Part shown: positions 3,588 through 41,735 of the stretch, in pieces
How positions within the stretch are numbered: position 1 is the stretch's first letter
Layout of the letters: each line of letters starts with the position of its first letter
Source of the DNA: a virus
Taxonomy: Duplodnaviria; Caudoviricetes
Strand: one strand, 5' to 3'
Virus record (IMG/VR): IMGVR_UViG_3300030095_003814
Span: 1-59,967 of that record
Length of the DNA: 59,967 bases
The notes under the pieces: model-generated
Told to the model about the DNA's origin: nothing
The model's database searches: none
Seen by the model: the letters and a program-made list of their open reading frames with translations, nothing else
Made by a program: the position numbers and the translations under genes

Positions 3588-4319
3588 GTGTCTGACGCTG
3601 GGTGGATTAAACTACATAGAAGATTGCTTGATTGGGAATGGTATTCTGATACTACGACTTTCCGACTATTCATGCATATTCTTCTAAAAGCAAATTTTAA
3701 GAAGTCACGGTTTCAAGGAATGGAAGTTCCTGCCGGTGGTTTTGTGACTAGCGCGAAGTCAATTTCAGCCGCTACAGGTCTAACAAATTCACAAATTCGA
3801 ACGTCACTTTCGAAGCTAGAACGCACAAACGAAATCGCAATCAAAACTACAAACAAATTTTCAATAATATCAATAGTTAAATGGTCTGGATATCAAACAG
3901 ATGACAATCAAATAGCAAACAAATCGCAATCAAATAGCAAACAAATCGCAACAGAAGAAGAAGGAAAGAAAGAAAGAAAGGAAGAAACTAATGGACAATT
4001 TGATTTAGGTGATGAAGGTGGGTTTGATGATTGGTATCAGCATTATCCGAAAAAAGAAGCTCGACAAAAAGCGATTGCAGCTTACAACAAGGCGGTTAAA
4101 CTTGTGGGCCATCAAACGCTAGTAGATGGGGCAAAGCGGTATGCTGATTTTGTGCGTGGCAGGGAAAAGAAGTTTATCAAGCAACCGGCAACATGGCTTA
4201 ACGGTGGATGCTGGGCTGATGAACTTGACGATGGCCCGAGGTTTAAAAGCCATTTGCCGTTTAAAGTTCCTGAATTTGAAGATGTTTTTGGCGATAGAAT
4301 GAAAAAAGATGGAGAATAG
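3588..4319 (+). CDS. Phage replication initiator / replisome organizer
   Basis: GTG with GGAGG SD; N-terminal GWIKLHRRLLDWEWY...LLKAN wHTH; C-terminal FDDWYQHYPKK...KQPATWLNG domain; internal iterons. Confidence 0.85.
   Translation: MSDAGWIKLHRRLLDWEWYSDTTTFRLFMHILLKANFKKSRFQGMEVPAGGFVTSAKSISAATGLTNSQIRTSLSKLERTNEIAIKTTNKFSIISIVKWSGYQTDDNQIANKSQSNSKQIATEEEGKKERKEETNGQFDLGDEGGFDDWYQHYPKKEARQKAIAAYNKAVKLVGHQTLVDGAKRYADFVRGREKKFIKQPATWLNGGCWADELDDGPRFKSHLPFKVPEFEDVFGDRMKKDGE
3826..3951 (+). repeat. Iteron array, probable replication origin
   Basis: CAATCAAATAGCAAACAAATCG twice at 3905-3948 (11-bp periodicity) plus degenerate copies at 3826-3860, inside the initiator gene as in lambda O. Confidence 0.75.
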
Positions 4320-4414: not shown

Positions 4415-4984
4415 ATGGACAAAAAATACCGATATGGAGAATTGAGAATCTGCATTATATGCGGGATGGAATTCAGACCAAGAGACAAGGGAACAAACCA
4501 GAAATGCTGTTCAAATACTTGTCGTGGGGCGCTTCAAACTAAAAAATCTATTCGCAAATGCGCCATCTGTAAAAATGAATTTCTCCCAAAGCGACCGACG
4601 TATAAGACGTGCTCGAGAAAATGCGGAACAGATTTTAGATTGTCTCGGATAAAACACGATCCAATGGTGGCAGTAAGAAAGCGTTTGGCTGTTTTTTGTT
4701 GTTCTTCCATTGCAAGATGCTTGAGGAACAAGACAGACAAGACTTCAAATCTTCTTGGATACACAGTCAAAGAACTGCGCGATCATCTTGAAAATCATTT
4801 TCAGGAAGGTATGACTTGGGATAATTACGGCAAGGGAAGGCATCAATGGAGCATAGATCACTCGAGACCGATATCATCATTTCCGAAAACAGCAACAATT
4901 GCAGAAATAAACGCATTAGAAAACCTAAGACCGATGTGGCACATAGAGAACTGTGCCAAGAAAAACAAGTGGGAGGGCCGTTAA
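4415..4984 (+). CDS. Free-standing HNH homing endonuclease with N-terminal zinc ribbons
   Basis: CxxC...CSxxC repeats; GMTWDNYG...WSIDHSRP...NLRPMW..EN..K. Confidence 0.85.
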   Translation: MDKKYRYGELRICIICGMEFRPRDKGTNQKCCSNTCRGALQTKKSIRKCAICKNEFLPKRPTYKTCSRKCGTDFRLSRIKHDPMVAVRKRLAVFCCSSIARCLRNKTDKTSNLLGYTVKELRDHLENHFQEGMTWDNYGKGRHQWSIDHSRPISSFPKTATIAEINALENLRPMWHIENCAKKNKWEGR

Positions 4985-11861: not shown

Positions 11862-12743
11862 ACTACCTAATCAAATTCGTATACAAAGCACGTAACAACG
11901 CGCAGAAATATCAGTTACAGGCAGATAGCGTTGAGGACGCGCTAACCAAGGGTCGAGAGAAGCTAGAGCAAGCCGTGCCTAATCCGAAAGATTACGAGCT
12001 TGAGTTTGTGCGTGTGTTGAATTGACTTTTGTGGTATAAGTAATCATGGAATTATTCGTAGGAATAGCTTTGTTTGTGATTGCTTCATTGATTGTTGTTC
12101 CGCTTTCGTGGTTGGTTAGTAAAATGGTTTTTGGAAGGTGAATTATGGAAACAGAACGCGGATTTAAGGATGTCGAAAAGTGCATTGAAGGCGCACGAGG
12201 CATAAAGCCAAACGGAGGTGATATTGATGGTTTGGGTGACGTTTAAACGTTGGAGGTTAGTATGATTTGGCTACTTGCTGTATATGGCGTTTCTTGGGCT
12301 TGGTTCTCGTATGTTTACACATGGCGGGCATCTATGCAGGGCGGGTTTAATGTTCCAGATATGATCTTTGCAATGGTGTTTGCATTGGGGTGGCCTATTA
12401 TTGAGTTTATTCGCTGGAGGAATGGATGATGCCTAACTTTAGCGGAATTGTTGGCCTTATTTATATTCTCGGTGGTGTATGCGTTGTATCAGTTCCGCTA
12501 GGGCTGTGGAAGATGGTTGAGTTGCTTTCTAACATTAGTATTTCGTGGGGTTGATATGGTAAAGGAAGATGGTCCTTGGGTGGCGATTGTTGATAACTCA
12601 GGAATTACAATAGCTAGCGGAGATAATTATCAAAATGCTACTTTGACTTTGCATGGTGATTTTTACAAAACAGTTGACGCTGTGAAATACGCAGAAGAAA
12701 TTGCTAAACGCTTAAACGCTTATCAGGTGCGTGAGGAGTTGTA

Positions 12744-13367
12744 ATGCCAGCCGGTAGACCAACAAAAATGACACCAGAGACAATCAAAAAATTAGAGGAC
12801 GCTTTTTTGCTTGGTCGAAACCTGAGTGAATCTTCACATTTTATGGTTGCGGAATATTTTCATTGCACTGGTGCGACCAAGGAAAGGTATGTTAACAAGT
12901 GGGAGACAAAGAGTTTTTACTGGATGCTTAAGAGTGATATGATCTTCGAGTATCAGGCGGTAAAGAAGCTGTTTCATTCTTTGAGGATTGACTGCAATAC
13001 TAAGTTTGATTGCTGTGTTTGCGGTGGGAAAACTACAAGTTTCAGGACAGGAAAAAGAAGGCATTGCTTAGAATGTTCCGATGAATTTGATGCAATGTCA
13101 AAGTTAAAGCGTAAAGTGCAGACGCTAAAAAGAAAGAAAAGATTAAAGTATTCTTCTGACGGTACGGTGACAGCAAAGTTCCTTAGAGATTTAATTAAAA
13201 GACAGGGATTTAAATGCAAATACTGCGGTGAGGAGCTGAGGAACGATTGGAAGCACTTAGACCACATTTACCCGGTAAGTAAGGGCGGGAAACATACAAG
13301 CGTTAATGTTCAATATTTGTGCCCGCCATGCAATATGAAGAAGCGCGATAAGGTTTATGATGCCTAG
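12744..13367 (+). CDS. HNH homing endonuclease fused to a captured TerS-like N-terminus
   Basis: First 24 aa MPAGRPTKMTPETIKKLEDAFLLG are TerS-like; C-terminus CKYCG...HLDHIYPVSKGGKH...NVQYLCPPCNMKK. Confidence 0.85.
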   Translation: MPAGRPTKMTPETIKKLEDAFLLGRNLSESSHFMVAEYFHCTGATKERYVNKWETKSFYWMLKSDMIFEYQAVKKLFHSLRIDCNTKFDCCVCGGKTTSFRTGKRRHCLECSDEFDAMSKLKRKVQTLKRKKRLKYSSDGTVTAKFLRDLIKRQGFKCKYCGEELRNDWKHLDHIYPVSKGGKHTSVNVQYLCPPCNMKKRDKVYDA

Positions 13368-13764
13368 AGGTAAAAAAGTAGATATTGAAGATTACATTGC
13401 GAACATAGAGGAGTACCTAAAGGTAGGTTGCTCAATACACGAAGCCTGCTTAAATGGTGAGGTTCCGTATAGAACTGTCATGGATTATTATGAAAACGAT
13501 GAAGAAATTCGCAAAAAAATAGACAGGTTGAAAAAGCACTCAATTTATATTGCGCGCAAGTCTGTTTTTGACCACATGGCAAAAGACGGTAAACTTGCTC
13601 TGTCTTTCCTTGAGCGTAAGAAAAAAGACGAATTCAGCCTTAAATCTGAGATTGCACATTCTGGCGAGATCGAACAAAAGCACACACTAGACGTAACCAA
13701 ACTAACAGACGATCAACTTAAGGCGTTGCGTGACGCTATGGTGAGCGATGATACACAGGGGTAA
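13357..13764 (+). CDS. terS: Terminase small subunit
   Basis: HTH region G.S..EAC; ARKSV...ALSFLERKKKDEFS; HSGEI...LDVTKLTDDQL tail. Confidence 0.75.
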   Translation: MMPRGKKVDIEDYIANIEEYLKVGCSIHEACLNGEVPYRTVMDYYENDEEIRKKIDRLKKHSIYIARKSVFDHMAKDGKLALSFLERKKKDEFSLKSEIAHSGEIEQKHTLDVTKLTDDQLKALRDAMVSDDTQG

Positions 13765-14047
13765 ATGGTTTGCCGCTTATGCTGGGCGCGATTGGGCGCG
13801 TCTTTTGCGCTTTAACTTGCAGATTGTGTTTCTCCCAAGATACGAAGAGCACGAATACGGATGCATGTTGCCGTGTTCAGCATATATTGATTTCTCGATT
13901 GGATCGTGTGTTGGTGACGTGGTTAAGTTTCTCCCATATAGGCAAAAGAAACGTGTACGTGACATTTCCCGAAAGTGGACGGGTAGAGAATGGGAGAGTG
14001 TAGGCGATTTTATATTCCCATGGAGATTTGATTTCGGATTTCAATAA
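13748..14047 (+). CDS. Hypothetical protein
   Basis: Overlaps the terS stop; followed by a terminator. Confidence 0.45.
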   Translation: MIHRGKWFAAYAGRDWARLLRFNLQIVFLPRYEEHEYGCMLPCSAYIDFSIGSCVGDVVKFLPYRQKKRVRDISRKWTGREWESVGDFIFPWRFDFGFQ

Positions 14048-14070
14048 CAACAATCCATCCGTTGAAACTC

Positions 14071-14100
14071 AGACGTCATTTAACCGTGGCGTCTTTTTTT
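14071..14100 (+). terminator. Intrinsic terminator
   Basis: AGACGTCA...TGGCGTCT hairpin plus T-tract. Confidence 0.75.
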
Positions 14101-14123
14101 GTCTTGTTTGTGTGCTTTTATGT

Positions 14124-14152
14124 TTGACACGAACAATCAACCATGTCATATT
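14124..14152 (+). promoter_or_regulatory. Early sigma70-like promoter
   Basis: TTGACA-17-CATATT, same class as the 2858/7953 cassettes. Confidence 0.7.
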
Positions 14153-14194
14153 ACCTTTCATGGAGAGACAAAAACCCAACGGAGGAATAAGACA

Positions 14195-14479
14195 ATGACA
14201 TTCAAACTACAGCCCGGAGACTACATCCGTCTTGCATCGGTTCCGGACGATAAGAAGCAGGCGGTTGTTGATGCGTTTGTTAATGCTGGCGCGGTAAACA
14301 ATCTTGGTTACGGACATCTGACATTTGATCGTAAATGTTTGGTTGCTATCTTTTATGATGGTCGCAAGGGTGGTTCTTTGAACGGTTCTTATGTTTGTGA
14401 CCATGAAGAATTCAAGCGCGAAGTCACCCTAGACCAAATCATTAGCGAACAAAACCCAACATGTGGTGACGTTTGTTGA
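14195..14479 (+). CDS. Hypothetical protein, MTFKLQPGD paralogue family
   Basis: GGAGG SD; conserved N-terminus and VTLDQI. Confidence 0.8.
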   Translation: MTFKLQPGDYIRLASVPDDKKQAVVDAFVNAGAVNNLGYGHLTFDRKCLVAIFYDGRKGGSLNGSYVCDHEEFKREVTLDQIISEQNPTCGDVC

Positions 14480-14670
14480 TGCAAGTTTACAAAAACACCA
14501 ACTGGACAAAGCGCGATTACGAATGCACTAACGTAGTTGCCGCTGTCAGCAACCGTAAGCCTGATGACTTCGAACTATCATCGTTTGATGAGTTGCCGAA
14601 GGACATTGTGAAACTGGCGTCGTATGAGTTTGATCATGGCGTTAATCTTGAATTGTGGGGGTATGTGTGA
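14473..14670 (+). CDS. Hypothetical protein
   Basis: Coupled ORF. Confidence 0.55.
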   Translation: MLMQVYKNTNWTKRDYECTNVVAAVSNRKPDDFELSSFDELPKDIVKLASYEFDHGVNLELWGYV

Positions 14671-14832
14671 TGATAGACCTTAATCAAGTATCAATGCGGC
14701 TTAAAAACAGCGCGTACGCACTTAACGAGGCAGCCATTAACATTACGATGCACTGGAACGATAAACAGCGTTTGCGTCGTGAGGCAAAGAACAATCTGGA
14801 ATTGGCAAAGATGATTGATGAGGAGGATAACG

Positions 14833-15108
14833 ATGAGTAAAGACAGGCCGCGCCCGTGGCACAACCCGACGCCGCTTAATGAATATGAGCCAGATTGGGC
14901 TGGGCAATTTGATACGTTTGAGGATTGGGTCAACCATGCACCACGAGCGTTAACTGGTGAGGTTGGCTCAGTTGGTGAAAAGTTGCCTGCATTTTGTGTT
15001 GACGCTATGGGGCGTCGTTGTCATGTTGGTTTTGACTTCCATAGGGCGCGTGACGATGGTGCGTTTCCAGTGCGGTATTTTTGGGGGTTTAAGGAAGAAT
15101 TGAAATGA
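14833..15108 (+). CDS. Hypothetical protein
   Basis: GGAGG SD; CVDAMGRRC..G.DF.RARD..AFPVRY motif. Confidence 0.7.
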   Translation: MSKDRPRPWHNPTPLNEYEPDWAGQFDTFEDWVNHAPRALTGEVGSVGEKLPAFCVDAMGRRCHVGFDFHRARDDGAFPVRYFWGFKEELK

Positions 15109-15368
15109 CATTCAAACTACAACCCGGCGACTGGATACCGACTGCGGAAGTCCCAGAGGAAAAGCGTCAGGCTGTGATTGATGCTTTTGTGAAGGCTGGT
15201 GCAACTTTGCCTGATACATTTTGGGCAGATTGGGATGAGGCGGTTGTCGCCCATTGGGATGGTATTTTCGGCGAATTAGATTTGTTTGAGGATGACGGAT
15301 ACGACGATGGCCGCCGCGTCACACTAGACCAAATACTTGGCCAACAAAAAACAACATGGGGTGAGTGA
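15105..15368 (+). CDS. Hypothetical protein, MTFKLQPGD paralogue family
   Basis: Near-identical ends to 1547..1969. Confidence 0.8.
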   Translation: MTFKLQPGDWIPTAEVPEEKRQAVIDAFVKAGATLPDTFWADWDEAVVAHWDGIFGELDLFEDDGYDDGRRVTLDQILGQQKTTWGE

Positions 15369-15617
15369 TGAAAAATAATCCAGACACGATCAAAGGCTTC
15401 ATATACGGACAGGACGGAAAACCAGTACCGTTAACCGTGAAAGATACGAAAGAAAATGCGCAGTTTATGGAATGGTTGCGTATTCATGATCGGAGTATGT
15501 GAGATCATTCGCACGATATTCTAGCGCCGACGAGTGAGTTTGCAACATTATTGCGTTTGTCAATAAGTGCTTTTATTGTGCGTGAGATCGGTTATAGTGT
15601 TGATAGGAGGTATAGAT

Positions 15618-15884
15618 ATGTATTACGATAATTGGAAAAACATGATTACCGATGAAATGTTTGATCATGGTGACTGCTGGGAAAATATTATATTTCAGTC
15701 GCTAACTCATGATGAACTAATGAAAGATTTTGATGCCGGATATGGTAGCGAATACGGGAAGCCTTTTTTCGTGTGGACGCACGACAGGGTTTATTTCCCG
15801 GTTTGCTATGATGGTTCAGAATGGGTAGGTAGCGTCCCGCGCCATCCCACAAGCGAAGAGCCGCAACATTTTGGTGGAGGTTGA
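15618..15884 (+). CDS. Hypothetical protein (VYFPVCYDGSEWVGSVPRHP motif)
   Basis: AGGAGG SD. Confidence 0.75.
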   Translation: MYYDNWKNMITDEMFDHGDCWENIIFQSLTHDELMKDFDAGYGSEYGKPFFVWTHDRVYFPVCYDGSEWVGSVPRHPTSEEPQHFGGG

Positions 15885-15887
15885 GAT

Positions 15888-16646
15888 ATGAAAATCGCAC
15901 TACTAGACGAACAAGGCAACGTTGTAACACCGCGCAAGGGTGATTGCGTTATGGCTTGCGATATTGAGAATGAGGAAATGCATAACGCTATTCGCGATGC
16001 GTTTGCTAATGCTGGGTGCAAAGTTTTTGAGCATGGAAAGTATAATGCAATTTCAGATTGGAAGTATCTTGCATGGCTAAACAGTAGCTTCAGCTATAGA
16101 GATCGGGGCTGTTTGTCTTGGTCTGATGACAACGAAGGATACCGCAGACTATACCCGCACGCCATCAAACAAACACTCTTCGAAGCGGCTAAAGATGCGG
16201 CTGATGGAACGCGGTTTAAGGTTGGTCAAGCCATTTTCAAAGTGCACCACGGTTCGTTGATGTGGATTGATGGTGACGAGTTGCGCCCAGCTTTGCTAAA
16301 TGTTCTTGGTGCTACGAATTGGGAATACGTTCCTGATGGACCAAAGAAGCGTGATGTACGTCAAGGACAGATTGTCGGGGAAGATAGCGTTTATATTCCC
16401 GCTGACATGATGGCGGAATGCATTGATGCATTTAAGCTGATTGGTCGCCTTGCAATGTGGGAAGGTGCGCAGATCGGTAAACCGGGTTATGCGAAATCGT
16501 GCATCCTGATCAGCCACGGAGACGACAAGGTTGGAGCTAATGGAGTAATGTACATTGATAATCCGTTGCCATTGCATGTTACATTCGAAACTAAAGAACA
16601 ATGCGAAGCGGCATGGAAAGCAGAATGCCCGGAGATGTTCGAATGA
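15888..16646 (+). CDS. Hypothetical protein; N-terminus distantly like the MTFKLQPGD family
   Basis: GGAGG SD; PRKGDCV...IRDAFANAG. Confidence 0.7.
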   Translation: MKIALLDEQGNVVTPRKGDCVMACDIENEEMHNAIRDAFANAGCKVFEHGKYNAISDWKYLAWLNSSFSYRDRGCLSWSDDNEGYRRLYPHAIKQTLFEAAKDAADGTRFKVGQAIFKVHHGSLMWIDGDELRPALLNVLGATNWEYVPDGPKKRDVRQGQIVGEDSVYIPADMMAECIDAFKLIGRLAMWEGAQIGKPGYAKSCILISHGDDKVGANGVMYIDNPLPLHVTFETKEQCEAAWKAECPEMFE

Positions 16647-16840
16647 AAAACGATCTTGCTGTAAAATTTGCATTGCGTGACGGCAAAGACAAATACGAAC
16701 AGATCGCACTTGCCATTGAAAACGATCTAACCATGAGACGTGGATATAAAGACGTTTACGACCAAAGCGGCGAGACAGAGGTAATGGAAATGCGCGAGAC
16801 GTGGCGCAATATCATTAAGGATGTGTTAAATGTGGATTAA
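16643..16840 (+). CDS. Hypothetical protein
   Basis: ATGA overlap. Confidence 0.55.
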   Translation: MKNDLAVKFALRDGKDKYEQIALAIENDLTMRRGYKDVYDQSGETEVMEMRETWRNIIKDVLNVD

Positions 16841-17005
16841 CGCAGAATACGCGCCTTATAACGTGGAGTTGCGGGTTAAGACTTATGGAGATCGTCAATT
16901 TTTTGTTACTCGCACACGATCTAAGCATCTAAAAAGTGTTTGGAAAATTAATTGTTGTGACGCGTTTTTCTTAGATCACGATGTAATGTCATACTGGTAT
17001 GCAAC

Positions 17006-17209
17006 ATGAAACAGGAAGATATTGTCCACCATCTTTCTTTGTTGAATGATGACTGGAGTGATGAGTATTGGCTGTTTTCAGCGTCTGGCAGACTTTGCTT
17101 GATGAGAAAAAAAGATGGCAAGAGGGTGATGCGCAAGAATGGCGGATTTGATCCTGATTATGTTGTTTGTACATTTCCTTTAATTGAAAACGATGGAGGT
17201 GACTGGTGA
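17006..17209 (+). CDS. Hypothetical protein
   Basis: Ends in NDGGDW, a C-terminal pattern seen in small phage proteins. Confidence 0.6.
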   Translation: MKQEDIVHHLSLLNDDWSDEYWLFSASGRLCLMRKKDGKRVMRKNGGFDPDYVVCTFPLIENDGGDW

Positions 17210-17448
17210 GAAACATAGACATACTAAGCAAAGCAACCAAAATATACACGACAGGCGGTGTTTATGATGGTGAGGCCGCGCATTGGGCTTTGGGTGAGAT
17301 TGATAGGTTGCGTGAAGAACTGATCGCCACAAGTTCGCATCTTGCGCTTGTTATGCACCAGCTAAACGAAGCAAACGACGAAATAGAATTGCTGCAATCG
17401 GAAAATGAAATGATTGAAGATATGCTAGAACGCGAAACGGAATGTTAA
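17206..17448 (+). CDS. Coiled-coil hypothetical protein
   Basis: GGAGG SD; GTGA overlap. Confidence 0.6.
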   Translation: MRNIDILSKATKIYTTGGVYDGEAAHWALGEIDRLREELIATSSHLALVMHQLNEANDEIELLQSENEMIEDMLERETEC

Positions 17449-17450
17449 TA

Positions 17451-17494
17451 ACACATAAACTTGTGTAGTATTAACCATGTGATATAATGCGAAT
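17451..17494 (+). promoter_or_regulatory. Putative late promoter: palindromic ACACATAAACTTGTGT plus extended -10
   Basis: TG-A-TATAAT at 17480-17488, 6 nt before the terL ATG; no SD. Confidence 0.6.
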
Positions 17495-18937
17495 ATGCAG
17501 CTAACACATGCCGATTTTATCAATATCGAGAAAGAGCTATGCCGCAGAAGCCTTGCGGAGTTTGTAAGGCAGGCATGGCCTGTTATTGATCCGGGTATGC
17601 CTCTTAAGTGGGGGTGGCATATGGATGCTATCTGCGAACACTTGGAAGCTGTAACAAATGGGGAATTAACACGTTTACTTATTAACGTTCCACCTGGTAC
17701 GTCTAAATCGTCTCTGGTTAACGTTTATTGGCCCGCGTGGGAATGGATCACTAAACCGTCAACACGTATCATATCAGCGTCACATGAGCAGGAACTAGCC
17801 ATTCGTGATACCACAAAGATGCGTCGATTGATAACATCCGAATGGTTCAGTGAACGATGGCCCATCAAATTAACCGCCGATCAAAACCAGAAAACATCAT
17901 TTGAAAACGACGCGACAGGGTTTAGGCAGGCAAGGGCGGTTAAGTCTATGACTGGTCGCCGTGGTGACAGGGTGATATGGGATGACCCGCAAAACGTCGA
18001 AGATGCGTTTTCAGAGGTTGAGCGGCCAAAGGCAATTCGCGTATTTCAAGAGACGCTGCCAACGCGACTAAATGACCCTGAAAAATCCGCCGTTATCATC
18101 GTTATGCAGCGATTGCACGAAGAGGATGTGTCTGGGTTCATTCTTTCTGACGATTACGGGTATGAGCATTTGTGCTTGCCGATGGAGTTTGAGCCTGAGC
18201 GTAAATGCTACACATCTATCGGATGGGAAGATCCGCGCACAGAGGAAGGCGAGTTACTTTTTCCTGAGCGTTTCCCGCGTGAGGTTGTGGAGCGTGATAA
18301 AAAGATCATGGGCACGTTTGCGTATGCAGGTCAAATGCAGCAACGTCCTGCCCCGCGTGGTGGTGGTTTCTTCGATTGGGAAAAGATCGATATTGTGTCG
18401 GCATGTCCTGCGCTAACAAAGACTGTTCGTTATTGGGATAAGGCGGGCACAGAAGGCGGAGGCGCACGTACTGCTGGTGTTAAGATGGGCATTGGCTCTG
18501 ATGGTGTGTTTTACATTACAGACGTTGTAAAAGGACAATGGGAAGCGCCAAAGCGTGAGGCGGTAATCAGGCAAACAGCCGAGACTGACGGCGTAAACGT
18601 CAATATCTGGATTGAGCAAGAGCCGGGATCAGGTGGTAAGGAAAGCGCACAATCTACCATACGCAATCTGGCAGGATTTACCATAAAGAAAGAACCTGTT
18701 TCAGGTTCTAAAGAAGCGCGAGCGGAGCCGCTATCAGTGCAAATTGAGGCTGGAAATGTTAAACTTGTTCGTGGCGAGTGGAATAAAGAATTCATTGACG
18801 AATTAAAGCTATTTCCTGCCAGCAAGTTTAAAGATCAGGTTGATGCTAGTTCTGGTGCATTTAACAAGCTGTCTCTAGGATACAGCAAGCCAGACGATTT
18901 TGTTATGCCATTCGCAAGTATGGTTGATGATATGTAG
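17495..18937 (+). CDS. terL: Terminase large subunit
   Basis: LLINVPPGTSKS Walker A, VIWDDP Walker B, IIVMQRLHEED, RYWDKA, IEQEPGSGGK, KDQVDA. Confidence 0.95.
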   Translation: MQLTHADFINIEKELCRRSLAEFVRQAWPVIDPGMPLKWGWHMDAICEHLEAVTNGELTRLLINVPPGTSKSSLVNVYWPAWEWITKPSTRIISASHEQELAIRDTTKMRRLITSEWFSERWPIKLTADQNQKTSFENDATGFRQARAVKSMTGRRGDRVIWDDPQNVEDAFSEVERPKAIRVFQETLPTRLNDPEKSAVIIVMQRLHEEDVSGFILSDDYGYEHLCLPMEFEPERKCYTSIGWEDPRTEEGELLFPERFPREVVERDKKIMGTFAYAGQMQQRPAPRGGGFFDWEKIDIVSACPALTKTVRYWDKAGTEGGGARTAGVKMGIGSDGVFYITDVVKGQWEAPKREAVIRQTAETDGVNVNIWIEQEPGSGGKESAQSTIRNLAGFTIKKEPVSGSKEARAEPLSVQIEAGNVKLVRGEWNKEFIDELKLFPASKFKDQVDASSGAFNKLSLGYSKPDDFVMPFASMVDDM

Positions 18938-28568: not shown

Positions 28569-29876
28569 ATGGCCCTATCTGATATTTTCCGTAAAAAGCC
28601 AAAAATGACTGACACATACGGCGATGCTGGGGTTCCTATATACTCTGGGTTCGTAGATAATGATTTCCTGAAAGAGCTTAACGGAACTCGCGGTCGCAAG
28701 ATTTACCGCCAGATGTCAGAAAATAGCCCGATTATTTCCGGGTTTCTGAATGTCTCAAAAACGCTTATCGAGGGTGCTGGCTTTGACTTTCGCTCTGTTG
28801 ATGAAAACACAGACAGCGTTGCGCTAGAAGATCGTGTTAAAGAGGATTACAGCAACCTACGCAGGCCGCTATACCAGTGCATTCTTGATGCTATTGACGA
28901 AGCGTTTGTTTATGGGTTCTCGCTGCAAGAGGCCACCTATGAGCGGGCAGACAACCGCATCAAGCCAAAGTCAATTGATATTCGTTCTGCTACTACTCTA
29001 GAACGATGGATCACGGCGGATGATGGTGTAACGCCTATCGGCATTGTTCAGGACTTGGTTAACGGTGGTCAGGTAGAAATACCAATGACCAAAATGATAC
29101 ACCACACTGCTATGGATTGGCGGGGGTCTCCTGAGGGAAAAAGTCTGTTGCGTGGGTGTTATCCTACTTGGTATCGCTTAAACAAGCACGAAGAACATCG
29201 AGATATCGCACTTGCAAAGGATATTCGTAATGCAACGGTTATTCGCGTTCCGCAAGAACTTATTCGGTGGGCTAATACGCCAATTAATGCAAGCATGGAC
29301 GACGAGACCAAGGCGCGGATTAACGCAGCTATTAATGCTCTTGAAGTGTATAAAAAAGCTGCCCGCGATCCTAATTTTAATTCTCAAACTGGCTTTGTGC
29401 TTCCTAGTGATACGTTTGTCACTAATGCAGGGACGCAAGAGGAAAAAGTAAGCAACGTTCGCAAGTACGAAATTGAACTGTTAAAAGCTGAAAACAGCGA
29501 TCACAAAGACCTGATGGAAACCATCAAGGAAAAGCAGGACGAGCTACGCCAAAACCTTTTGATTGCGTTTATCGCGCTTGGTTCTAATCGCGGCGGATCA
29601 CAAGCACTTGCAAAAGAACTAACAGAGATGCTTGCTTTGTCGCTTGAAGGCCAAATGCGCCGTTATGCTGACAGCTTTAATAACCAAGAATTGCGCCGTT
29701 ATGCCGTGCTTAACAATCTTGATTACGATGCACTGCCAAAGCTAACGCCAAACCGAATTAAAACGCCTGATCTTGAAATGCTTGGCGGGTTTATCCGTGA
29801 TGTATCAGGCAGCGAAATTATGCTTGATGAAGAACTTGGCGAGGATGTGCGCGGACTGATTAAAGGCAGTATCTAA
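28569..29876 (+). CDS. Portal protein (DUF935-like)
   Basis: GRKIYRQMSEN, YGFS.QE..Y, SPEGKSLLRGCY..W, GGSQALA; precedes MuF. Confidence 0.85.
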   Translation: MALSDIFRKKPKMTDTYGDAGVPIYSGFVDNDFLKELNGTRGRKIYRQMSENSPIISGFLNVSKTLIEGAGFDFRSVDENTDSVALEDRVKEDYSNLRRPLYQCILDAIDEAFVYGFSLQEATYERADNRIKPKSIDIRSATTLERWITADDGVTPIGIVQDLVNGGQVEIPMTKMIHHTAMDWRGSPEGKSLLRGCYPTWYRLNKHEEHRDIALAKDIRNATVIRVPQELIRWANTPINASMDDETKARINAAINALEVYKKAARDPNFNSQTGFVLPSDTFVTNAGTQEEKVSNVRKYEIELLKAENSDHKDLMETIKEKQDELRQNLLIAFIALGSNRGGSQALAKELTEMLALSLEGQMRRYADSFNNQELRRYAVLNNLDYDALPKLTPNRIKTPDLEMLGGFIRDVSGSEIMLDEELGEDVRGLIKGSI

Positions 29877-30892
29877 TGCCACTAGGTAGCGCGAAAGAAC
29901 AAGAACGCATTGCCCAAGAACTAATGGACAAATTGGAGCCGGGCATTCGCTCCGCGTTCCTTGATATGATCGACAAGATCGACATCCCATTGTCTGAATT
30001 GGTTGCACTGATTGAGGCCAATGACTTTGTAGCGGTTCAGCAAATAATCAACACGCAATATGGCCTATATGCGCCTATCCTGTCATCTGCGGTTATTGGT
30101 GCTGTGGTTGCATCCGGTCAGTCAACAGCGCAACAGCTTGACGGTACGCCAATTCGCGAAGATTACCAGCGCATAAGCGGCCCTAAAAAGATTGTTGCCG
30201 TGTTTGATCAGTCAAACCCTAACACCGTTGCTGACATGGAAGCATACCGCGCAACGTTTATTTCAGAGATTACAGAAACGCAGCGAGATGCAATCGGTAA
30301 TGCGGTAACGGACGGTTTGCGCCGTGGGTTAAACCCGCGTGATTTTGCCCGTGAGATACGCCAGACCATCGGCCTTTCGTCTGATCTACAAAGGCACTTG
30401 GTAAACTTCCGTCGAAAGTTAGAGGACTTGGATCCGTCTGTATTCTCCAATACGCGAAGGGACAAGCGTTTTGACGCAACACTACGACGCGCAATCGAAG
30501 GTGATAAGCCTTTATCCAAAGACCAAATCAATAAGATGGTGGAACGCTACAGGCAACGGCTTTTGGTTTATCGCTCAGAGCGTATCGCGCGGACAGAAGC
30601 ACTCAGGGCGCATAGTGTCGGCAACATTGCGTCGTGGCGTCAAGTCTTTGAAGCCAACGAGATACCAGAAGCGGTAGTTAGGCGAGACTGGCGCTATACT
30701 CATGATGGTAGAACGCGAGAATGGCACCGAGATATTCCGCGACTAAATCCGAAAGGCGTCGGCATTAACGAGCCATTCCGCACACCATTAGGGCCGTTGC
30801 GTTATCCGGGCGATCCTGCGGGACGTGCTGCAAACGTGGTTAATTGCCGTTGCACGGAAACCATGCGTCTTGATTGGGACTTGGAAGGCTAG
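29876..30892 (+). CDS. Head morphogenesis protein (MuF/gp7)
   Basis: RSERIARTE, DGRTREWH, LRYPGDP...NVVNCRC. Confidence 0.9.
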   Translation: MPLGSAKEQERIAQELMDKLEPGIRSAFLDMIDKIDIPLSELVALIEANDFVAVQQIINTQYGLYAPILSSAVIGAVVASGQSTAQQLDGTPIREDYQRISGPKKIVAVFDQSNPNTVADMEAYRATFISEITETQRDAIGNAVTDGLRRGLNPRDFAREIRQTIGLSSDLQRHLVNFRRKLEDLDPSVFSNTRRDKRFDATLRRAIEGDKPLSKDQINKMVERYRQRLLVYRSERIARTEALRAHSVGNIASWRQVFEANEIPEAVVRRDWRYTHDGRTREWHRDIPRLNPKGVGINEPFRTPLGPLRYPGDPAGRAANVVNCRCTETMRLDWDLEG

Positions 30893-32494: not shown

Positions 32495-33562
32495 TTGAAA
32501 TTTACCGTTTCCCGTTCCGCTCTTAACCGGGCAATTAAAAACATTGCTGGCGTGGTGGAAAAGAAAAACACCATGCCGATCTTGGCTCACGCTAAACTTG
32601 AAGTTGGCGACAAGCTGAAAATCACAGGATCGTCAATGGATATTGAGGCGACCGCAACAGTTGAATGCGAAGTTGCGCAAGCTGGCGAAATTACCGTTCC
32701 AGTATACACTTTGGCGGATATCGTTAATAAGCTGCCTAATGGCGATGTGAAAGTGTCGCTTGAGGATAGCAAACTAAAGGTATCTAGCGGACGTTCGCGC
32801 TTTACGCTACCCACGTTGCCTGTTGGTGACTTCCCGTCTATGAATATGGAAAGCGACGTATACTTTGATATTCCCGCCGCAACATTTGGTTATATGCTGC
32901 AAAAGTCTGAGTTCTGCGCAAGCGATGACGAAACGCGATATTATCTCAATGGCGTATGTCTGGACTTCAAGGACGATGCAACATATTCGGTTGCAACGGA
33001 CGGGCACAAGATGGCTAAGATTGCCGGTGTAAAAACTGTTGATCATGCGCAAATTATCATTCCATCAAAAACCGTCATGCAAGTTCTTAAGCTGCTTGAT
33101 GGTTGCGAGATTGTAACTGTGTCTCTGTCTGATAACCTGATCGGGTTCAACTTTGGCGATGCTGCTGTATTGTCTCGCTTGATTGATGGTAAGTTCCCGG
33201 ATTATGGGCGTGTTATCCCAGAAGGCAACGATAAGAAAATGTCGGTTAACGTTGCTGATATGCTTGGCGCTATTGAGCGTGTTGGTTCCATTGCTGACAG
33301 CAAGACACGGGCTGTTAAATGCACCATTGCAGACGGAACAATGACGATTGAGGCTAAATCATCTGAGTTTGGCGAAGCGTCCGAGGTTATTGACGTTGAT
33401 GCTGACTTTGACCTGATCATTGGCTTTAACGGTCGTTATATGTCTGACATTCTCAAGTCGCTGGAATGTGAAGCCGTTGATATGTCGTTTAGCACGGAAA
33501 GCGGGCCTATTCGTATTGAAGATGAGGATCAGCTTTATATCGTAATGCCATTGCGCGTGTAG
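32495..33562 (+). CDS. dnaN: DNA polymerase III beta sliding clamp
   Basis: VEKKNTMPILAH, ETRYYLNGV, VATDGHKM, SRLIDGKFPDYGRVIP, IGFNGRY, VMPLRV; AGGAGG SD. Confidence 0.95.
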   Translation: MKFTVSRSALNRAIKNIAGVVEKKNTMPILAHAKLEVGDKLKITGSSMDIEATATVECEVAQAGEITVPVYTLADIVNKLPNGDVKVSLEDSKLKVSSGRSRFTLPTLPVGDFPSMNMESDVYFDIPAATFGYMLQKSEFCASDDETRYYLNGVCLDFKDDATYSVATDGHKMAKIAGVKTVDHAQIIIPSKTVMQVLKLLDGCEIVTVSLSDNLIGFNFGDAAVLSRLIDGKFPDYGRVIPEGNDKKMSVNVADMLGAIERVGSIADSKTRAVKCTIADGTMTIEAKSSEFGEASEVIDVDADFDLIIGFNGRYMSDILKSLECEAVDMSFSTESGPIRIEDEDQLYIVMPLRV

Positions 33563-33778: not shown

Positions 33779-33875
33779 TGCGTATATTCCACACAAAAAC
33801 TTTGCACAATAAATTTGACCACATAATCTTGTTGTGATATAACTACATAAATTTTGTGTAAAAGTGTATTGGTTA

Positions 33876-34322
33876 ATGACCGACAAACATAATTCCGAAA
33901 AATTCCAAGGTTCTGGTGATATCGTCAAGCGCGACAATGAAAAGCGCATTATGGGCGGATGGTTTAACGTCTTTAAATATGATGGTGAGGACGTTGTAGA
34001 CCGCCAAGGCGACGTTGTAGACATCGAAAGCTACTCAGATGCATATGTCGAATATGTAAAAGATGCGCGAGTTGGCAAATTTGATCACGACGGGAACCAA
34101 CGCGCTGATCTGATTGATAGCATCCTGATTGATAGCGAAGAATACGCAAAGATGCTTGTGTCAGAAATCACCGGCATGTCACCAGAAGATATCCCCGTTA
34201 AAAAAATTGGTCATTTTGGTTCGTTCCAAGTTCGATCTGATGAAGATTGGGAATTGGCAAAAAATGACAAGCTGATGTTTTCCATCGGCGGAACGGGCAA
34301 GCGGGAAGAAATCAATGACTGA
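33876..34322 (+). CDS. XkdF-like prohead serine protease
   Basis: IVKRDNEKRIMGGW, VVDRQGD, MFSIGG.G.R. Confidence 0.8.
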   Translation: MTDKHNSEKFQGSGDIVKRDNEKRIMGGWFNVFKYDGEDVVDRQGDVVDIESYSDAYVEYVKDARVGKFDHDGNQRADLIDSILIDSEEYAKMLVSEITGMSPEDIPVKKIGHFGSFQVRSDEDWELAKNDKLMFSIGGTGKREEIND

Positions 34323-35259
34323 TAAAAAGAGATACCGTCTAAAAGTTAACAAGCTGTCTGAAATTTCCGCCGTAGAGCGCGGTGCCAACCAGCATTCGCA
34401 CGTTACTTTTATGAAGGCAATGGACTACAACGAAACCGAGCGATCATACGATATTAGGCGAGAAGCAAGTGAGGAAATTTGGGAAGCAACCCAAGTCCTT
34501 CAAGATGTGGTCCGTAATCTTGTAGAAAGCAACGAAGAGAACAAAACGGAAACGCTTATGCGATCCGTTGACCAGTTTGCGGCTGACCTAAAGCAAAAGC
34601 TGTCTGTCGTAAAAAGCGCCGGGTCGCCCGGTAAATCTGAAACTGAAAAGGGAAGTCAAATGACTGACAAGGTAGAAAAGGGCGATCTTGAAGCCAAGGT
34701 TGCCGAACTCGAAAAATCCCTGTCTGATGTCACCAAAGAACGCGACGAAGCAAAAGCCGAAATCGCAAAACGTGACGAACAGGCAGCGATTGAAAAGAGC
34801 GACGATGTTTTCAAATCCGTTGATGGCGATCTGATTAAGAAGTCAGAAGTTGGTGGCGCTTTTGAAACGCTCAAAAAGCAGGATGCGGCTATCCGCAAAA
34901 TGCAGGCAGAAGCAGAAGTCCGCAAGGCAGAAGATTTTGTTAAGTCTGAATACGGTCATCTTGTAGGCGAAAATCTCGCTAAAGCATGGCGCGAAGTTCA
35001 GAAACTTGACGAAGATGTTCGCGAAGTCGTTAAAGGCGTATTTGATCAGGCGGAAAAAGCCGCTGCTGACATGTGCGTGACTAAAGGAATGGGTGGCGAG
35101 AAAAAAGAAGTTTCCGCGAAAGAGGAAATGGACAAGAAAGCCAAAGCCCTGATGGAAAAGTCGCTTGAGGGCGGTAATTCCATGTCCTACGTGGATGCTT
35201 ACGACGCTGTAGCGAAGTCTGATCCAGAACTCTACGCAAAAGCAGTGGAAGGTAAATAA
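34315..35259 (+). CDS. Capsid scaffold protein
   Basis: L.EISAVERGANQ N-terminus; K/E-rich coiled coil; position before capsid genes. Confidence 0.7.
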   Translation: MTDKKRYRLKVNKLSEISAVERGANQHSHVTFMKAMDYNETERSYDIRREASEEIWEATQVLQDVVRNLVESNEENKTETLMRSVDQFAADLKQKLSVVKSAGSPGKSETEKGSQMTDKVEKGDLEAKVAELEKSLSDVTKERDEAKAEIAKRDEQAAIEKSDDVFKSVDGDLIKKSEVGGAFETLKKQDAAIRKMQAEAEVRKAEDFVKSEYGHLVGENLAKAWREVQKLDEDVREVVKGVFDQAEKAAADMCVTKGMGGEKKEVSAKEEMDKKAKALMEKSLEGGNSMSYVDAYDAVAKSDPELYAKAVEGK

Positions 35260-35261
35260 TC

Positions 35262-35645
35262 ATGGCTGTTCTTGAAAGCGTAAAATCCGTAACCCTCACT
35301 GCTGGCGGTGCAATTGGTCAGTATGAGGTTGTCGAAATCCTTTCGGCCAATGCTGGCGAAGTAACTTCGGTTGCTACGGCTGGCAATGATGGCGTTGGCG
35401 TTGCTCTTGAAGCTGCTGCGGCTGATGGTGACAAAATCAACGTTGCTGTTATCACTGGTGGCGGCAAGTGCAAGGCGAAAGCTGGTGCTGCTGTTGCTGC
35501 TGGTGTGAATTTGACCACCGACGCGTCTGGCCGTGTAGTCACTGCGGCAGTTGGTAATGCCGTTATTGGCAAGTCTCTTAGTGCCGCTGGCGCTGCTGGT
35601 GAAATTCTGACGATGCTTTTTGATAAAAAAGCCAACGTTGTTTAA
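35262..35645 (+). CDS. Capsid decoration/cement protein (DUF2190-like)
   Basis: Ala/Gly-rich 127 aa immediately before the major capsid gene. Confidence 0.75.
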   Translation: MAVLESVKSVTLTAGGAIGQYEVVEILSANAGEVTSVATAGNDGVGVALEAAAADGDKINVAVITGGGKCKAKAGAAVAAGVNLTTDASGRVVTAAVGNAVIGKSLSAAGAAGEILTMLFDKKANVV

Positions 35646-35665
35646 GGCATAAGGAGTAATTAAAA

Positions 35666-36646
35666 ATGCCTCTTACTAATCCAACTGCTGGTGACGTTCA
35701 TGTAAATGTGCCGTTGACCAACTACGCGCAGAAGTATTTGCAGAATGCGGATAACTTCATCGCTGGTCGCGCATTCCCGAACGCTACGGTCGCAAAACAG
35801 TCTGACAAATACTATGTATTTGATAAAGGCGATTTCTACCGTGACGAAGCCGCTATTCGTGCGGATGGTACGGAAAGTGTCGGTTCCGGTTTCAATCTTT
35901 CGACTGACACCTATTTCGCTGATGTTCGCGCATTCCACAAGGATGTAACCGACCGTCAGCGAGCCAATCAGGATGCAGCCGTACAGCTTGATAACTCGGC
36001 AACTCAGTACGTAATGCACAAGCTGCTTATTAGCCGCGAACGTGTGTTTGCAACTGAAGCTTTCGGCACTTCGATCTGGGGTACTGACTTTAACGTCAAC
36101 TCCTCTGGTGCAGCTCTTTGGAATGCTGCAAACTCTACTCCGATTGAAGAAATCCGAAACGGTAAGCGTACAGTTCACACCAATACCGGCTTTAACCCGA
36201 ACAAAGCTATTATCGGTCGTGGTACGTATGACGCGCTTCTTGATAACGATGATATCCTTGGTCGCATTAACGGCGGCGCTACTACCGCGCTTCCGGCAAT
36301 GGTACAGCGTCAGCGTCTTGCCGAAATCCTTGAGCTTGACGAAATCCTCGTAATGAACGGTGTTTACAACTCCGCTGTAGAGGGTGCAACTGATAGCATG
36401 AGCCTGATCGGCAACGATGGCATGCTTCTGTACTATGCTCCGTCAACTCTTGGTTTGAATGAGCCGACTGCTGGCGCTCAGTTCTCTTGGACTGGCTACA
36501 TGGGTGCAACCCAGAACGGTATGCGCATTAAGCGCTTCCGTATGGATCATCTTGAGAGTGATCGTATCGAAGGTGATATGGCTTTTGACTTTAAAGTCAC
36601 GGGCGCTGACCTTGGTTACTTCTTCTCAAACACCCTGTCTGCTTAA
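35666..36646 (+). CDS. Major capsid protein
   Basis: GDVHVNVPLTN, V.KQSDKYY, DLGYFF; AAGGAG SD; followed by a terminator. Confidence 0.88.
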   Translation: MPLTNPTAGDVHVNVPLTNYAQKYLQNADNFIAGRAFPNATVAKQSDKYYVFDKGDFYRDEAAIRADGTESVGSGFNLSTDTYFADVRAFHKDVTDRQRANQDAAVQLDNSATQYVMHKLLISRERVFATEAFGTSIWGTDFNVNSSGAALWNAANSTPIEEIRNGKRTVHTNTGFNPNKAIIGRGTYDALLDNDDILGRINGGATTALPAMVQRQRLAEILELDEILVMNGVYNSAVEGATDSMSLIGNDGMLLYYAPSTLGLNEPTAGAQFSWTGYMGATQNGMRIKRFRMDHLESDRIEGDMAFDFKVTGADLGYFFSNTLSA

Positions 36647-39911: not shown

Positions 39912-41096
39912 ATGGCAAATGTAGCCGGTTCACAGGTTGTTCTAAGCCTGATCAAAGAAAGCACATACGGGACTACGCCCACCGTAAACACGGGCGACAT
40001 GACTGCTTTGGCACTCGTCACCAAAGATATCAATGGCGAGAACTCAGAAATTAACTCACGTACCGTAACCCCTGATGGATTCGCACCTATCGGGACTACT
40101 GGTTTTGAAAGCGTTACAGGTTCACTTGAATTTGAATTGTCCGCAGGCACCTTGGATTTCAATATCCCACTTGTAGCCAATTCAGATTGGACCACCGATG
40201 ACGCATCAGAGGCGTCTGTAGGCGTTGACTTTGCGGCGTCTGGTTCTACCGCAACGCGCTCAGTGGGTGACTGGACTACTACTTTTGACGTTGGTGACGC
40301 GGTTATTATTTCCGGAGCTGCTGAGGCTGAAAACAACGGACTTCGAGTTATCACCGCTCTGACAGCAACCGTAATGACGCTTACTGACAAAATGGAAGAT
40401 GGCGAAGCGGTAGCAATTGTTGACGAAATCACCGCAACTATCAGCGTACAGGGCCATAGTAAATATATTGACCACGTACAGACCAACTACAGCTATAGCG
40501 CACAGCGTAAAGTAGGTGATGATTATTACACCTATACCGGCGTTGTCTCTGGTGGTTGGGGTCTTTCCGTAACCCCTGATAACACTGTATCCATGACCAC
40601 TGATCTGCTTGGCAAGGCAGAAGCAGGGCCAACCGGAACGCCACTTGATAGCGCACCGACTGAGCAAAGCGGTTCTAACCCGTTTTCGCCGGTTGATGCG
40701 GCTATTTTCATTCACACTGGCGGCATTGCAATGGAATGCGCAACCGATCTTAGTGTTACGTTGAATGCAAATATTTCAACCGCGCCGGTTATTGCGTCTA
40801 CCGTGTCTTGCGGAGTCCAAAGAGGAACTATCTCATTTGACGGCTCCACTGTCACTGTTTTCTATGATGATGTGACTTCGTTCCCGTCTAGCGATACAAC
40901 GTTTGCTATGAGCATTGTTTTCCGGGAAGCTGGCACAGAGCGCTTCTTGTCTCTATATTTCCCAGAGGCAAAAATTCTAAACCGCACTCTAACGGTTCCG
41001 TCCACGGAAAACGTAACTCAGCAATTGTCCCTTACTATCGGCAAGGCTGCTGGTTCTCCGTTGGTGCGATACGGATACAACGAAAACGCGTCTTAA
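39912..41096 (+). CDS. Major tail tube protein
   Basis: KESTYGTTP N-terminus, V.G.LEFEL; 394 aa; position. Confidence 0.85.
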   Translation: MANVAGSQVVLSLIKESTYGTTPTVNTGDMTALALVTKDINGENSEINSRTVTPDGFAPIGTTGFESVTGSLEFELSAGTLDFNIPLVANSDWTTDDASEASVGVDFAASGSTATRSVGDWTTTFDVGDAVIISGAAEAENNGLRVITALTATVMTLTDKMEDGEAVAIVDEITATISVQGHSKYIDHVQTNYSYSAQRKVGDDYYTYTGVVSGGWGLSVTPDNTVSMTTDLLGKAEAGPTGTPLDSAPTEQSGSNPFSPVDAAIFIHTGGIAMECATDLSVTLNANISTAPVIASTVSCGVQRGTISFDGSTVTVFYDDVTSFPSSDTTFAMSIVFREAGTERFLSLYFPEAKILNRTLTVPSTENVTQQLSLTIGKAAGSPLVRYGYNENAS

Positions 41097-41186: not shown

Positions 41187-41735
41187 ATGGGTATTATACA
41201 CAAACCAAAAACAAAATACAATGAGGGTCCAGATATTGATCTTGTGAAAAAGTATATTGATTACGATAGGGACACTGGGGTATTCACTTGGAAAGTAAAC
41301 AGGAGGTATACAGCGCGAAAGGGCTCCGTAGCTGGATTAAAAAATGATAGTGGATATATACTTTTAACAATTGAAAGCAAAAGATATCGCGCCCATCGAA
41401 TAGCATGGCTTTTAGTCCATGGTGAATGGCCTAAAAATCAAATTGATCACATTAATGGCGTGAGGGATGACAATAGAATTGAAAATCTAAGACACGTGAC
41501 CAATGCGCAAAACGCGGCGAACGCGTCACTTATGCCATGCAACACGTCTGGCTTTAAGGGGGTTACATATGATAAAGATCGTAGTAAGTGGCACTCACAA
41601 ATAAAGAAGGACGCTAAGAAATATTTCTTAGGTAGATATGATTGCAAGATCGAAGCCGCTAAAGCATATGACAAAAAAGCAATTGAGTTGTTTGGTGAGT
41701 ATGCCAAAACAAATAAATCTATGGGATTATACTAA
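41187..41735 (+). CDS. HNH-AP2 homing endonuclease
   Basis: YRAHRIAW, IDHINGVRDDNRIENLR, NTSGFKGV...AAKAYD...FGEYA. Confidence 0.92.
   Translation: MGIIHKPKTKYNEGPDIDLVKKYIDYDRDTGVFTWKVNRRYTARKGSVAGLKNDSGYILLTIESKRYRAHRIAWLLVHGEWPKNQIDHINGVRDDNRIENLRHVTNAQNAANASLMPCNTSGFKGVTYDKDRSKWHSQIKKDAKKYFLGRYDCKIEAAKAYDKKAIELFGEYAKTNKSMGLY

Follow-up and report, generated by a model that had tools for sequence, protein, structure and literature searches.

It is commonly stated that homing elements depend on an intron or an intein for entry into essential genes. Replacement of a gene end is a third route, which is described as rare and so far for 3' ends, in the nuclei of yeasts and in fungal mitochondria. 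For the WHO elements of Torulaspora and Lachancea yeasts, the accessible text of the reports describes a replacement of the 3' half of FBA1 at each integration, without splicing (PMC7282813; bioRxiv 10.64898/2026.08.13.744650). The mORFs of fungal mitochondria are reported, in the available excerpts of their description, for atp6, atp9, cox2 and nad3 of Glomus sp. and for atp6 of Allomyces macrogynus (PMC3630166). Free-standing phage nucleases can also split genes, and the available passages of one paper name mobE in nrdA of Aeh1, mobA in gene 39/60 of T4 and seg in gene 43 (PMC2988022). The region upstream of the terminase genes is presented as a hot spot for HEGs in the accessible portion of PMC10448857, and HNH proteins of HK97-type packaging are the alternative stated there and in the accessible portion of PMC12724721.

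The window analysed here is a complete virus record of 59,967 bases with direct terminal repeats. DNA and protein searches with the locus and with terS returned no close relative of this phage among deposited phages. Around its terS gene, we found a remnant of a native terS start, a mosaic terS, no ribozyme, an HNH gene of sporadic distribution and a layout that recurs in the HNH subfamily. We consider it probable that the locus is a gene-start-replacing homing cassette, composed of an HNH gene and a substitute front end for terS.

Two overlapping ORFs lie in different frames at 12744-13367 (207 aa, HNH) and 13357-13764 (135 aa, terS); all features of the locus are on the + strand. They are preceded by a small ORF at 12517-12744 (75 aa, no family match), the TAA of which overlaps the ATG at 12744 (TAATG). 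A Shine-Dalgarno motif, GAGGAG, was read from the sequence at 12733-12738, 5 nt 5' of this ATG. It would be the original ribosome-binding site of terS, by which the HNH ORF is now served. The HNH ORF begins with a leader of 24 codons (12744-12815), the stranded native 5' end of terS, fused in frame to the HNH gene. The HNH body, residues 25-207 (12816-13367), comprises a helical N-terminal region, a CxxC...CxxC segment and the HNH core at about residues 150-205. Its stop codon, TAG at 13365-13367, lies within ATGCCTAG, the opening of terS, so that terS, counted from this opening, shares 8 nt with the HNH ORF. A second ATG of the terS ORF, at 13360, follows TAAGGT at a distance of 5 nt and agrees with the public gene call, P0001 (134 aa); translation is likely to start there rather than at 13357. 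Codon 24 is GGT in both ORFs, at 12813-12815 in the HNH ORF and at 13426-13428 in the terS ORF. The G+C content is 0.392 in the block and 0.442 in the genome, a difference that does not set the block apart, since the upstream ORF has 0.388. Scans of base composition, repeats, promoters and terminators gave no junction signal. A 12-nt inverted repeat across 12815 (12806-12817 with 12874-12885) was judged to be a chance match.

The leader of the HNH ORF was identical in 24/24 residues to the N-terminus of P0003, an uninterrupted metagenomic terS protein of 134 aa from a 1255-base contig. P0003 was found by the HNH query through the leader stretch alone, with an E of 1.5e-4 against 5.8 billion sequences, and the second-best leader match among 56 terS homologues reached 18/24. 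Furthermore, a terS HMM matched residues 1-30 of the HNH ORF (E 1.3e-5). To judge from these matches, the 24-residue leader is a genuine terS N-terminus, beyond chance. An earlier note, made from the sequence of this DNA, had claimed that the HNH ORF opens with 24 codons of terS type, that the two 24-codon segments end in GGT at 12815 and 13428, and that the ORF sits behind the start signals of terS. The observation was borne out: the leader is of terS origin, the GGT codons are where it placed them, and the ORF follows the GAGGAG motif and the TAATG overlap with the upstream gene, which would be the signals of the original terS. Its question whether the leader comes from HNH families or from TerS is answered in favour of TerS, P0003 being the best of the 56 homologues. 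The two 24-codon segments of the window were alike at 30/72 bases in an ungapped comparison, a value that codon shuffles reached in 2.9% of 2000 trials, and they are distant homologues only.

The ORF at 13360-13764 is terS-like (phrog_4102, E 8.5e-10). The profile of terS alignment A1 matched P22 gp3 (PDB 3p9a) with an E of 0.0034, and the Pfam Sf6_terminase match of the window terS was below threshold (E 0.12). Residues 1-57 were identical to P0002 at 49 of 57 positions (86%), as opposed to 14/54 for P0003. Beyond residue 57, the identity to P0002 drops to about half. The identity to P0003, about 25% over residues 1-63, rises to 58/71 over residues 63-134 and to about 53/58 from residue 75 on. 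Among the 56 homologues, P0002 was the best match for residues 1-57, and P0003 was the best for residues 63-134 as well as for the leader. The terS search had returned 57 proteins, 35 of which were aligned, and trees were built for 34 rows with P0038 and P0049 left out; as the alignments have few columns, only two placements were used. In the tree of the N-terminal part (residues 2-62), the window falls within clade B, with a split between clades A and B supported at 100/100, and in that of the C-terminal part (residues 63-112) it is sister to P0003 with support of 95/86. The two trees thus disagree on the place of the window with strong support.

Together with the switch in identity, the disagreement between the trees indicates that the foreign piece comprises the entire N-terminal domain, about 60-70 codons long. 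The foreign clade B domain occupies 13360-13545 (codons 1 to about 62), and the resident P0003-like part, which includes the tail motif KLTDDQLKAL, occupies 13546-13764. Both junctions were placed from protein comparison, and the right-hand recombination junction lies in terS codons ~58-75 (13528-13580), where the identity switches from P0002-like to P0003-like. A terS with a clade B N-terminal domain is also found in L001, with no HNH gene upstream and with terL just downstream. Residues 1-57 are an N-terminal domain of the usual kind for a different, naturally occurring terS clade. These results uphold the view of the earlier note that a nuclease sits in terS, has captured its start and is followed by a terS with a substitute N-terminus. 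What did not hold is the size and kind of substitute that it proposed, a recoded stretch of 24 codons with a return to the gene at 13429: the point at which similarity to the uninterrupted allele resumes, which it had proposed to map, lies at about codons 63-75 in the comparison with P0003.

Homologues of terS lie directly, or almost directly, upstream of terL in L001, L002, L017, L111 and L112. In the window, terL (17495-18937; Terminase_6C, phrog_38) is located 3.7 kb downstream of terS, and the intervening region (13765-17494) holds about ten small ORFs of unknown function. Two of these, at 14195-14479 and 15105-15368, are paralogous and both start with MTFKLQPGD. A terminator-like hairpin with a T-run (14071-14094) precedes the site that most resembles a promoter in this region (14124-14152; TTGACA, 17 nt, CATATT), so terS and terL may belong to different transcription units. 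Further downstream, a full-length gene for DNA polymerase III beta (sliding clamp) is found amid the head genes at 32495-33562, with the portal and Mu-F genes (28569-30892) on one side and those for protease and capsid (33864-36646) on the other. A second nuclease gene (41187-41735; 182 aa, Pfam HNH_3 and AP2) is flanked by the genes for the tail tube (39912-41096) and the tape measure protein (42538-45366).

The C-terminal domain of the HNH ORF matched Pfam HNH_5 (PF14279) with 45.1 bits (cut-off 27.5) and HNH (PF01844) with 39.8 bits (cut-off 21.4), and the ORF matched many HNH families of PHROG. All 19 invariant columns of HNH alignment A2 were present, including the invariant Cys, His, Asp and Asn residues. 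The AlphaFold model of the ORF (pLDDT 78.3) showed a single helix at residues 11-41 that spans the join between leader and HNH body. In a Foldseek search, only the HNH core was matched, and the best solved structure was the Gme HNH nicking endonuclease (4h9d). A homing role gets no support from this match. A word search of 5.8 billion sequences found no close relative of the window HNH, and a search of the phage collection found distant HNH cores only.

We examined the distribution of the HNH gene in 32 terS-family loci, which had been fetched with terS queries. None of them carried an ORF that matched the HNH profile at E <= 0.1, and L017, the positive control, gave 4.5e-61. Twenty-four of the 32 loci have at least 650 nt upstream; L004 and L099 are from the same contig, and L005/L006 and L112/L113 are near-identical pairs. 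The window HNH gene is thus an accessory gene with sporadic distribution. Two marks of a homing endonuclease gene were found here: sporadic presence, with 0/32 loci occupied and P0003 as the uninterrupted allele, and a foreign flanking tract, with terS residues 1-57 of clade B and residues 63-134 P0003-like.

These data also bear on the possibility that the HNH gene is no mobile element and that its product acts with the terminase as an HK97 gp74-type packaging accessory, the leader being a by-product of gene fusion. The position of the HNH gene directly upstream of terS, the small HNH nicking endonuclease as best PDB match (4h9d) and the literature, which places packaging HNH proteins at this position in its accessible parts (PMC10448857, PMC12724721), all agree with this explanation. 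However, a packaging accessory would be conserved beside the terminase, and the HNH gene is not a conserved part of the module, since 0/32 terS-family loci carry it. Moreover, the TerL of the window has a Terminase_6C domain and its portal and head genes are Mu-like. These features go with headful packaging and not with the HK97-type cos packaging. A packaging role would also leave the mosaic terS and the identity of the leader to P0003 unexplained, and we regard it as quite improbable.

Relatives of the window HNH were collected by an exhaustive HMMER search. The closest was P0062 (49% identity over query residues 39-204), followed by P0063-P0066 and P0071. Several members of this subfamily resemble the window ORF, with its leader of 24/24 identity to P0003, in carrying a terS-like start. 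The leader of P0064 matched P0231 at 19/20 residues and P0235 at 17/17, that of P0211 matched P0231 at 19/20, and that of P0066 matched P0035-P0037 at 10/11; those of P0065 and L017 are shorter terS-like starts. P0231 is a real terS, different from P0003. P0062, P0063 and P0073 are without a leader and showed runs of 3-4 residues only, and the remaining HNH matches of the HMMER search had no significant terS match. P0062, P0063 and P0065 start opposite residues ~16-35 of the window HNH. The join lies at terS codon 24 and near the native HNH start in the window, and at terS codon 20 and deeper in the HNH in P0064. As the joins differ on both sides, this comparison argues for at least two separate captures. 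Since protein sets show in-frame leaders only, the share of in-frame fusions is biased upwards.

P0071 is a protein of 211 aa that is known only from a 2208-base assembly contig. It has a near-complete N-terminal domain of terS type (residues 5-66, E 6.4e-18) and is without the CxxC region of its relatives. This domain is either a captured leader of much greater length or a terS DNA-binding domain that was taken on to target the nuclease.

Apart from the window, L017 is the one locus with this layout that was seen as DNA; the other cases of recurrence are known from proteins. Its order is terS-like leader, HNH, intact terS and terL, and the terS start, ATGCCTAA, overlaps the HNH stop. The two junctions of this locus, at 3998-4005 and 4593-4600, are alike: the upstream TAA and the HNH start form ATGGCTAA, and the HNH TAA and the terS start form ATGCCTAA. 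In L017, the 3' end of the HNH gene appears to imitate the native junction of the upstream gene with terS. Taken together, the comparisons indicate, at the level of sequence, that the layout recurs and that at least one HNH subfamily has acquired it repeatedly. A genome-contig scan with P0211 found no relative, and viral-contig scans with P0003, the window terS, P0211 and the L017 HNH found no close allele as DNA. A metagenome scan with the terS alignment gave at least 12 distant terS loci, and among the matches listed there was no clade B terS and no P0003.

The presence of the leader in several subfamily members, and of a full terS-like domain in P0071, would also fit a degenerate helix-turn-helix DNA-binding motif that belongs to the HNH family itself and is inherited vertically. 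We give little credence to this explanation. The leaders range in length from ~10 to ~64 residues, the position within the HNH part at which they are joined differs too, and P0062, P0063 and P0073 are leaderless. In addition, two of the leaders are identical or nearly identical to differing real terS proteins (24/24 for P0003 and 19/20 for P0231), and the 24 residues in the window span the first helix only.

Considering that phage HNH genes are often borne on introns, and that a T precedes 12816, a self-splicing intron with an HNH ORF, joining 12815 to 13429, may be envisaged. However, no Rfam intron family was found at E <= 10 within 12300-14300. The last base of a group I intron is G, and the supposed last intron base, 13428, is T. 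The terS gene is intact, with its own start and a natural clade B N-terminus, and splicing is therefore unnecessary. An intron here is thus hardly credible, and we place it behind every other explanation considered. The two ORFs are in different frames with a stop between them, which is why there is no intein either. The splicing-free layout proposed in the earlier note accordingly agrees with the lack of a ribozyme in the Rfam search of this region and with the separate start of terS. At the DNA level, the Rfam result, the HNH stop and the reading frames leave no intron or intein that could remove the element, as is the case where gene ends are replaced. The other mark of gene-end replacement, an allelic variant that restores the gene while the native end persists, was also found (24/24 residues for P0003, 49/57 for P0002, and incongruent trees).

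The terS tail with KLTDDQLKAL is common to proteins with unrelated N-terminal domains. P0038 and P0213 have a GP3_package N-terminal domain, yet 37/40 of their residues are identical to the tail of the window terS, and a terS of a high-GC phage (L115, 1354-1839), closely followed by terL, ends in a similar tail motif. This tail has the look of a portable module that may serve in TerL binding. Such exchanges of N-terminal domains on a common tail (P0038 and P0213 with 37/40, and the tail motif of L115), with no visible HNH gene, are what would be expected if two unrelated events had shaped the locus. Module shuffling would then have swapped the DNA-binding domain of terS, and illegitimate recombination would separately have dropped the HNH gene and left the remnant, the nuclease having no role in moving the block. 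However, the clade A remnant lies upstream and the clade B domain downstream of the HNH gene, an order that is most simply explained by the insertion of one block. Furthermore, L017 repeats both the layout and the stop/start overlap, and leaders of terS type are found repeatedly in the HNH subfamily. We therefore consider two independent events unlikely, if the least unlikely of the alternatives.

A homing cassette that replaced the start of terS would have arisen as follows. An ancestor would have carried a clade A terS resembling P0003. A block consisting of the HNH gene and the first 60-70 codons of a clade B terS would have replaced resident codons 25 to ~65. The first 24 resident codons would have been kept, together with the ribosome-binding site and the coupling to the upstream gene, and would now open the HNH frame. 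Translation of the HNH protein would begin at the captured start codon of the leader. No Shine-Dalgarno motif was seen 5' of the internal Met34 of the window HNH ORF, and in P0064 and L017 the sole Met upstream of the conserved N-region lies in the leader. The intact terS would be translated from the imported start that overlaps the HNH stop. The HNH enzyme is presumed to cut or nick naive terS alleles within the region that the cassette replaces, and the imported, diverged domain may escape cutting and so confer immunity. Repair would then copy the cassette, with the leader and the upstream DNA serving as the left arm and the conserved 3' part of terS as the right arm.

A wider version of this proposal, which we put forward tentatively and hold to be possible though doubtful, is an HNH lineage dedicated to the 5' ends of terS genes, with both homology arms within terS. 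The leader would act as the left arm and permit entry into phages with unrelated upstream genes, the imported DNA-binding domain would provide immunity, and the conserved part after it would act as the right arm. In that case, every round of homing would replace the domain for pac recognition, and phages would exchange their packaging specificity under the drive of a selfish nuclease. The locus itself points to selfish nucleases as possible carriers of packaging-specificity domains from phage to phage, and some mosaic terS genes could be explained by such a cassette. For annotation, it is a warning that an ORF named 'HNH' can open with the codons of another gene.

We compared the locus with the systems described above, as far as the accessible parts of the cited reports allow. 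In the open-access literature, no phage case of a replaced gene 5' end was found in print, and the layout, which is known in yeast and fungal mitochondria, has apparently not yet been described for phages. The mobE, mobA and seg genes are likewise intronless phage genes for HNH or GIY-YIG enzymes that lie in an essential gene and use the expression signals of the host gene, as given in the available passages (PMC2988022). However, two polypeptides must reassemble in those cases. No reassembly is needed in the window, because a complete terS has been rebuilt with the imported front half. At the terminase hot spot, an HNH gene beside the terminase genes likewise marks a boundary between sequences of different ancestry, whereas the HEGs in the accessible portion of that report lie beside terL or in introns of terL, as opposed to a terS start captured in frame and a replaced domain (PMC10448857).

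The mORFs are closer. There, too, a foreign gene end moves together with a nuclease ORF, the native end stays behind next to this ORF and matches close relatives, and some mORFs are in phase with the host gene, according to the available excerpts (PMC3630166). They differ in that C-terminal ends are replaced, by LAGLIDADG or GIY-YIG enzymes in organelles, whereas the N-terminal end is replaced in the window; the element must therefore also supply or capture translation starts. The WHO elements, as described in the accessible text, resemble the locus in that a homing element occupies a protein-coding gene with neither intron nor intein, and in that the gene is restored by an allelic variant of one end. 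They act on the 3' half of FBA1 with an intein-derived endonuclease of LAGLIDADG type in a eukaryotic nucleus, whereas the window presents the 5' domain of a phage terS and an HNH enzyme. In contrast to WHO, the stranded native end in the window is continuous in frame with the nuclease and would provide its start. On our best reading, the locus is the 5'-end mirror of the yeast WHO elements and the fungal mORFs.
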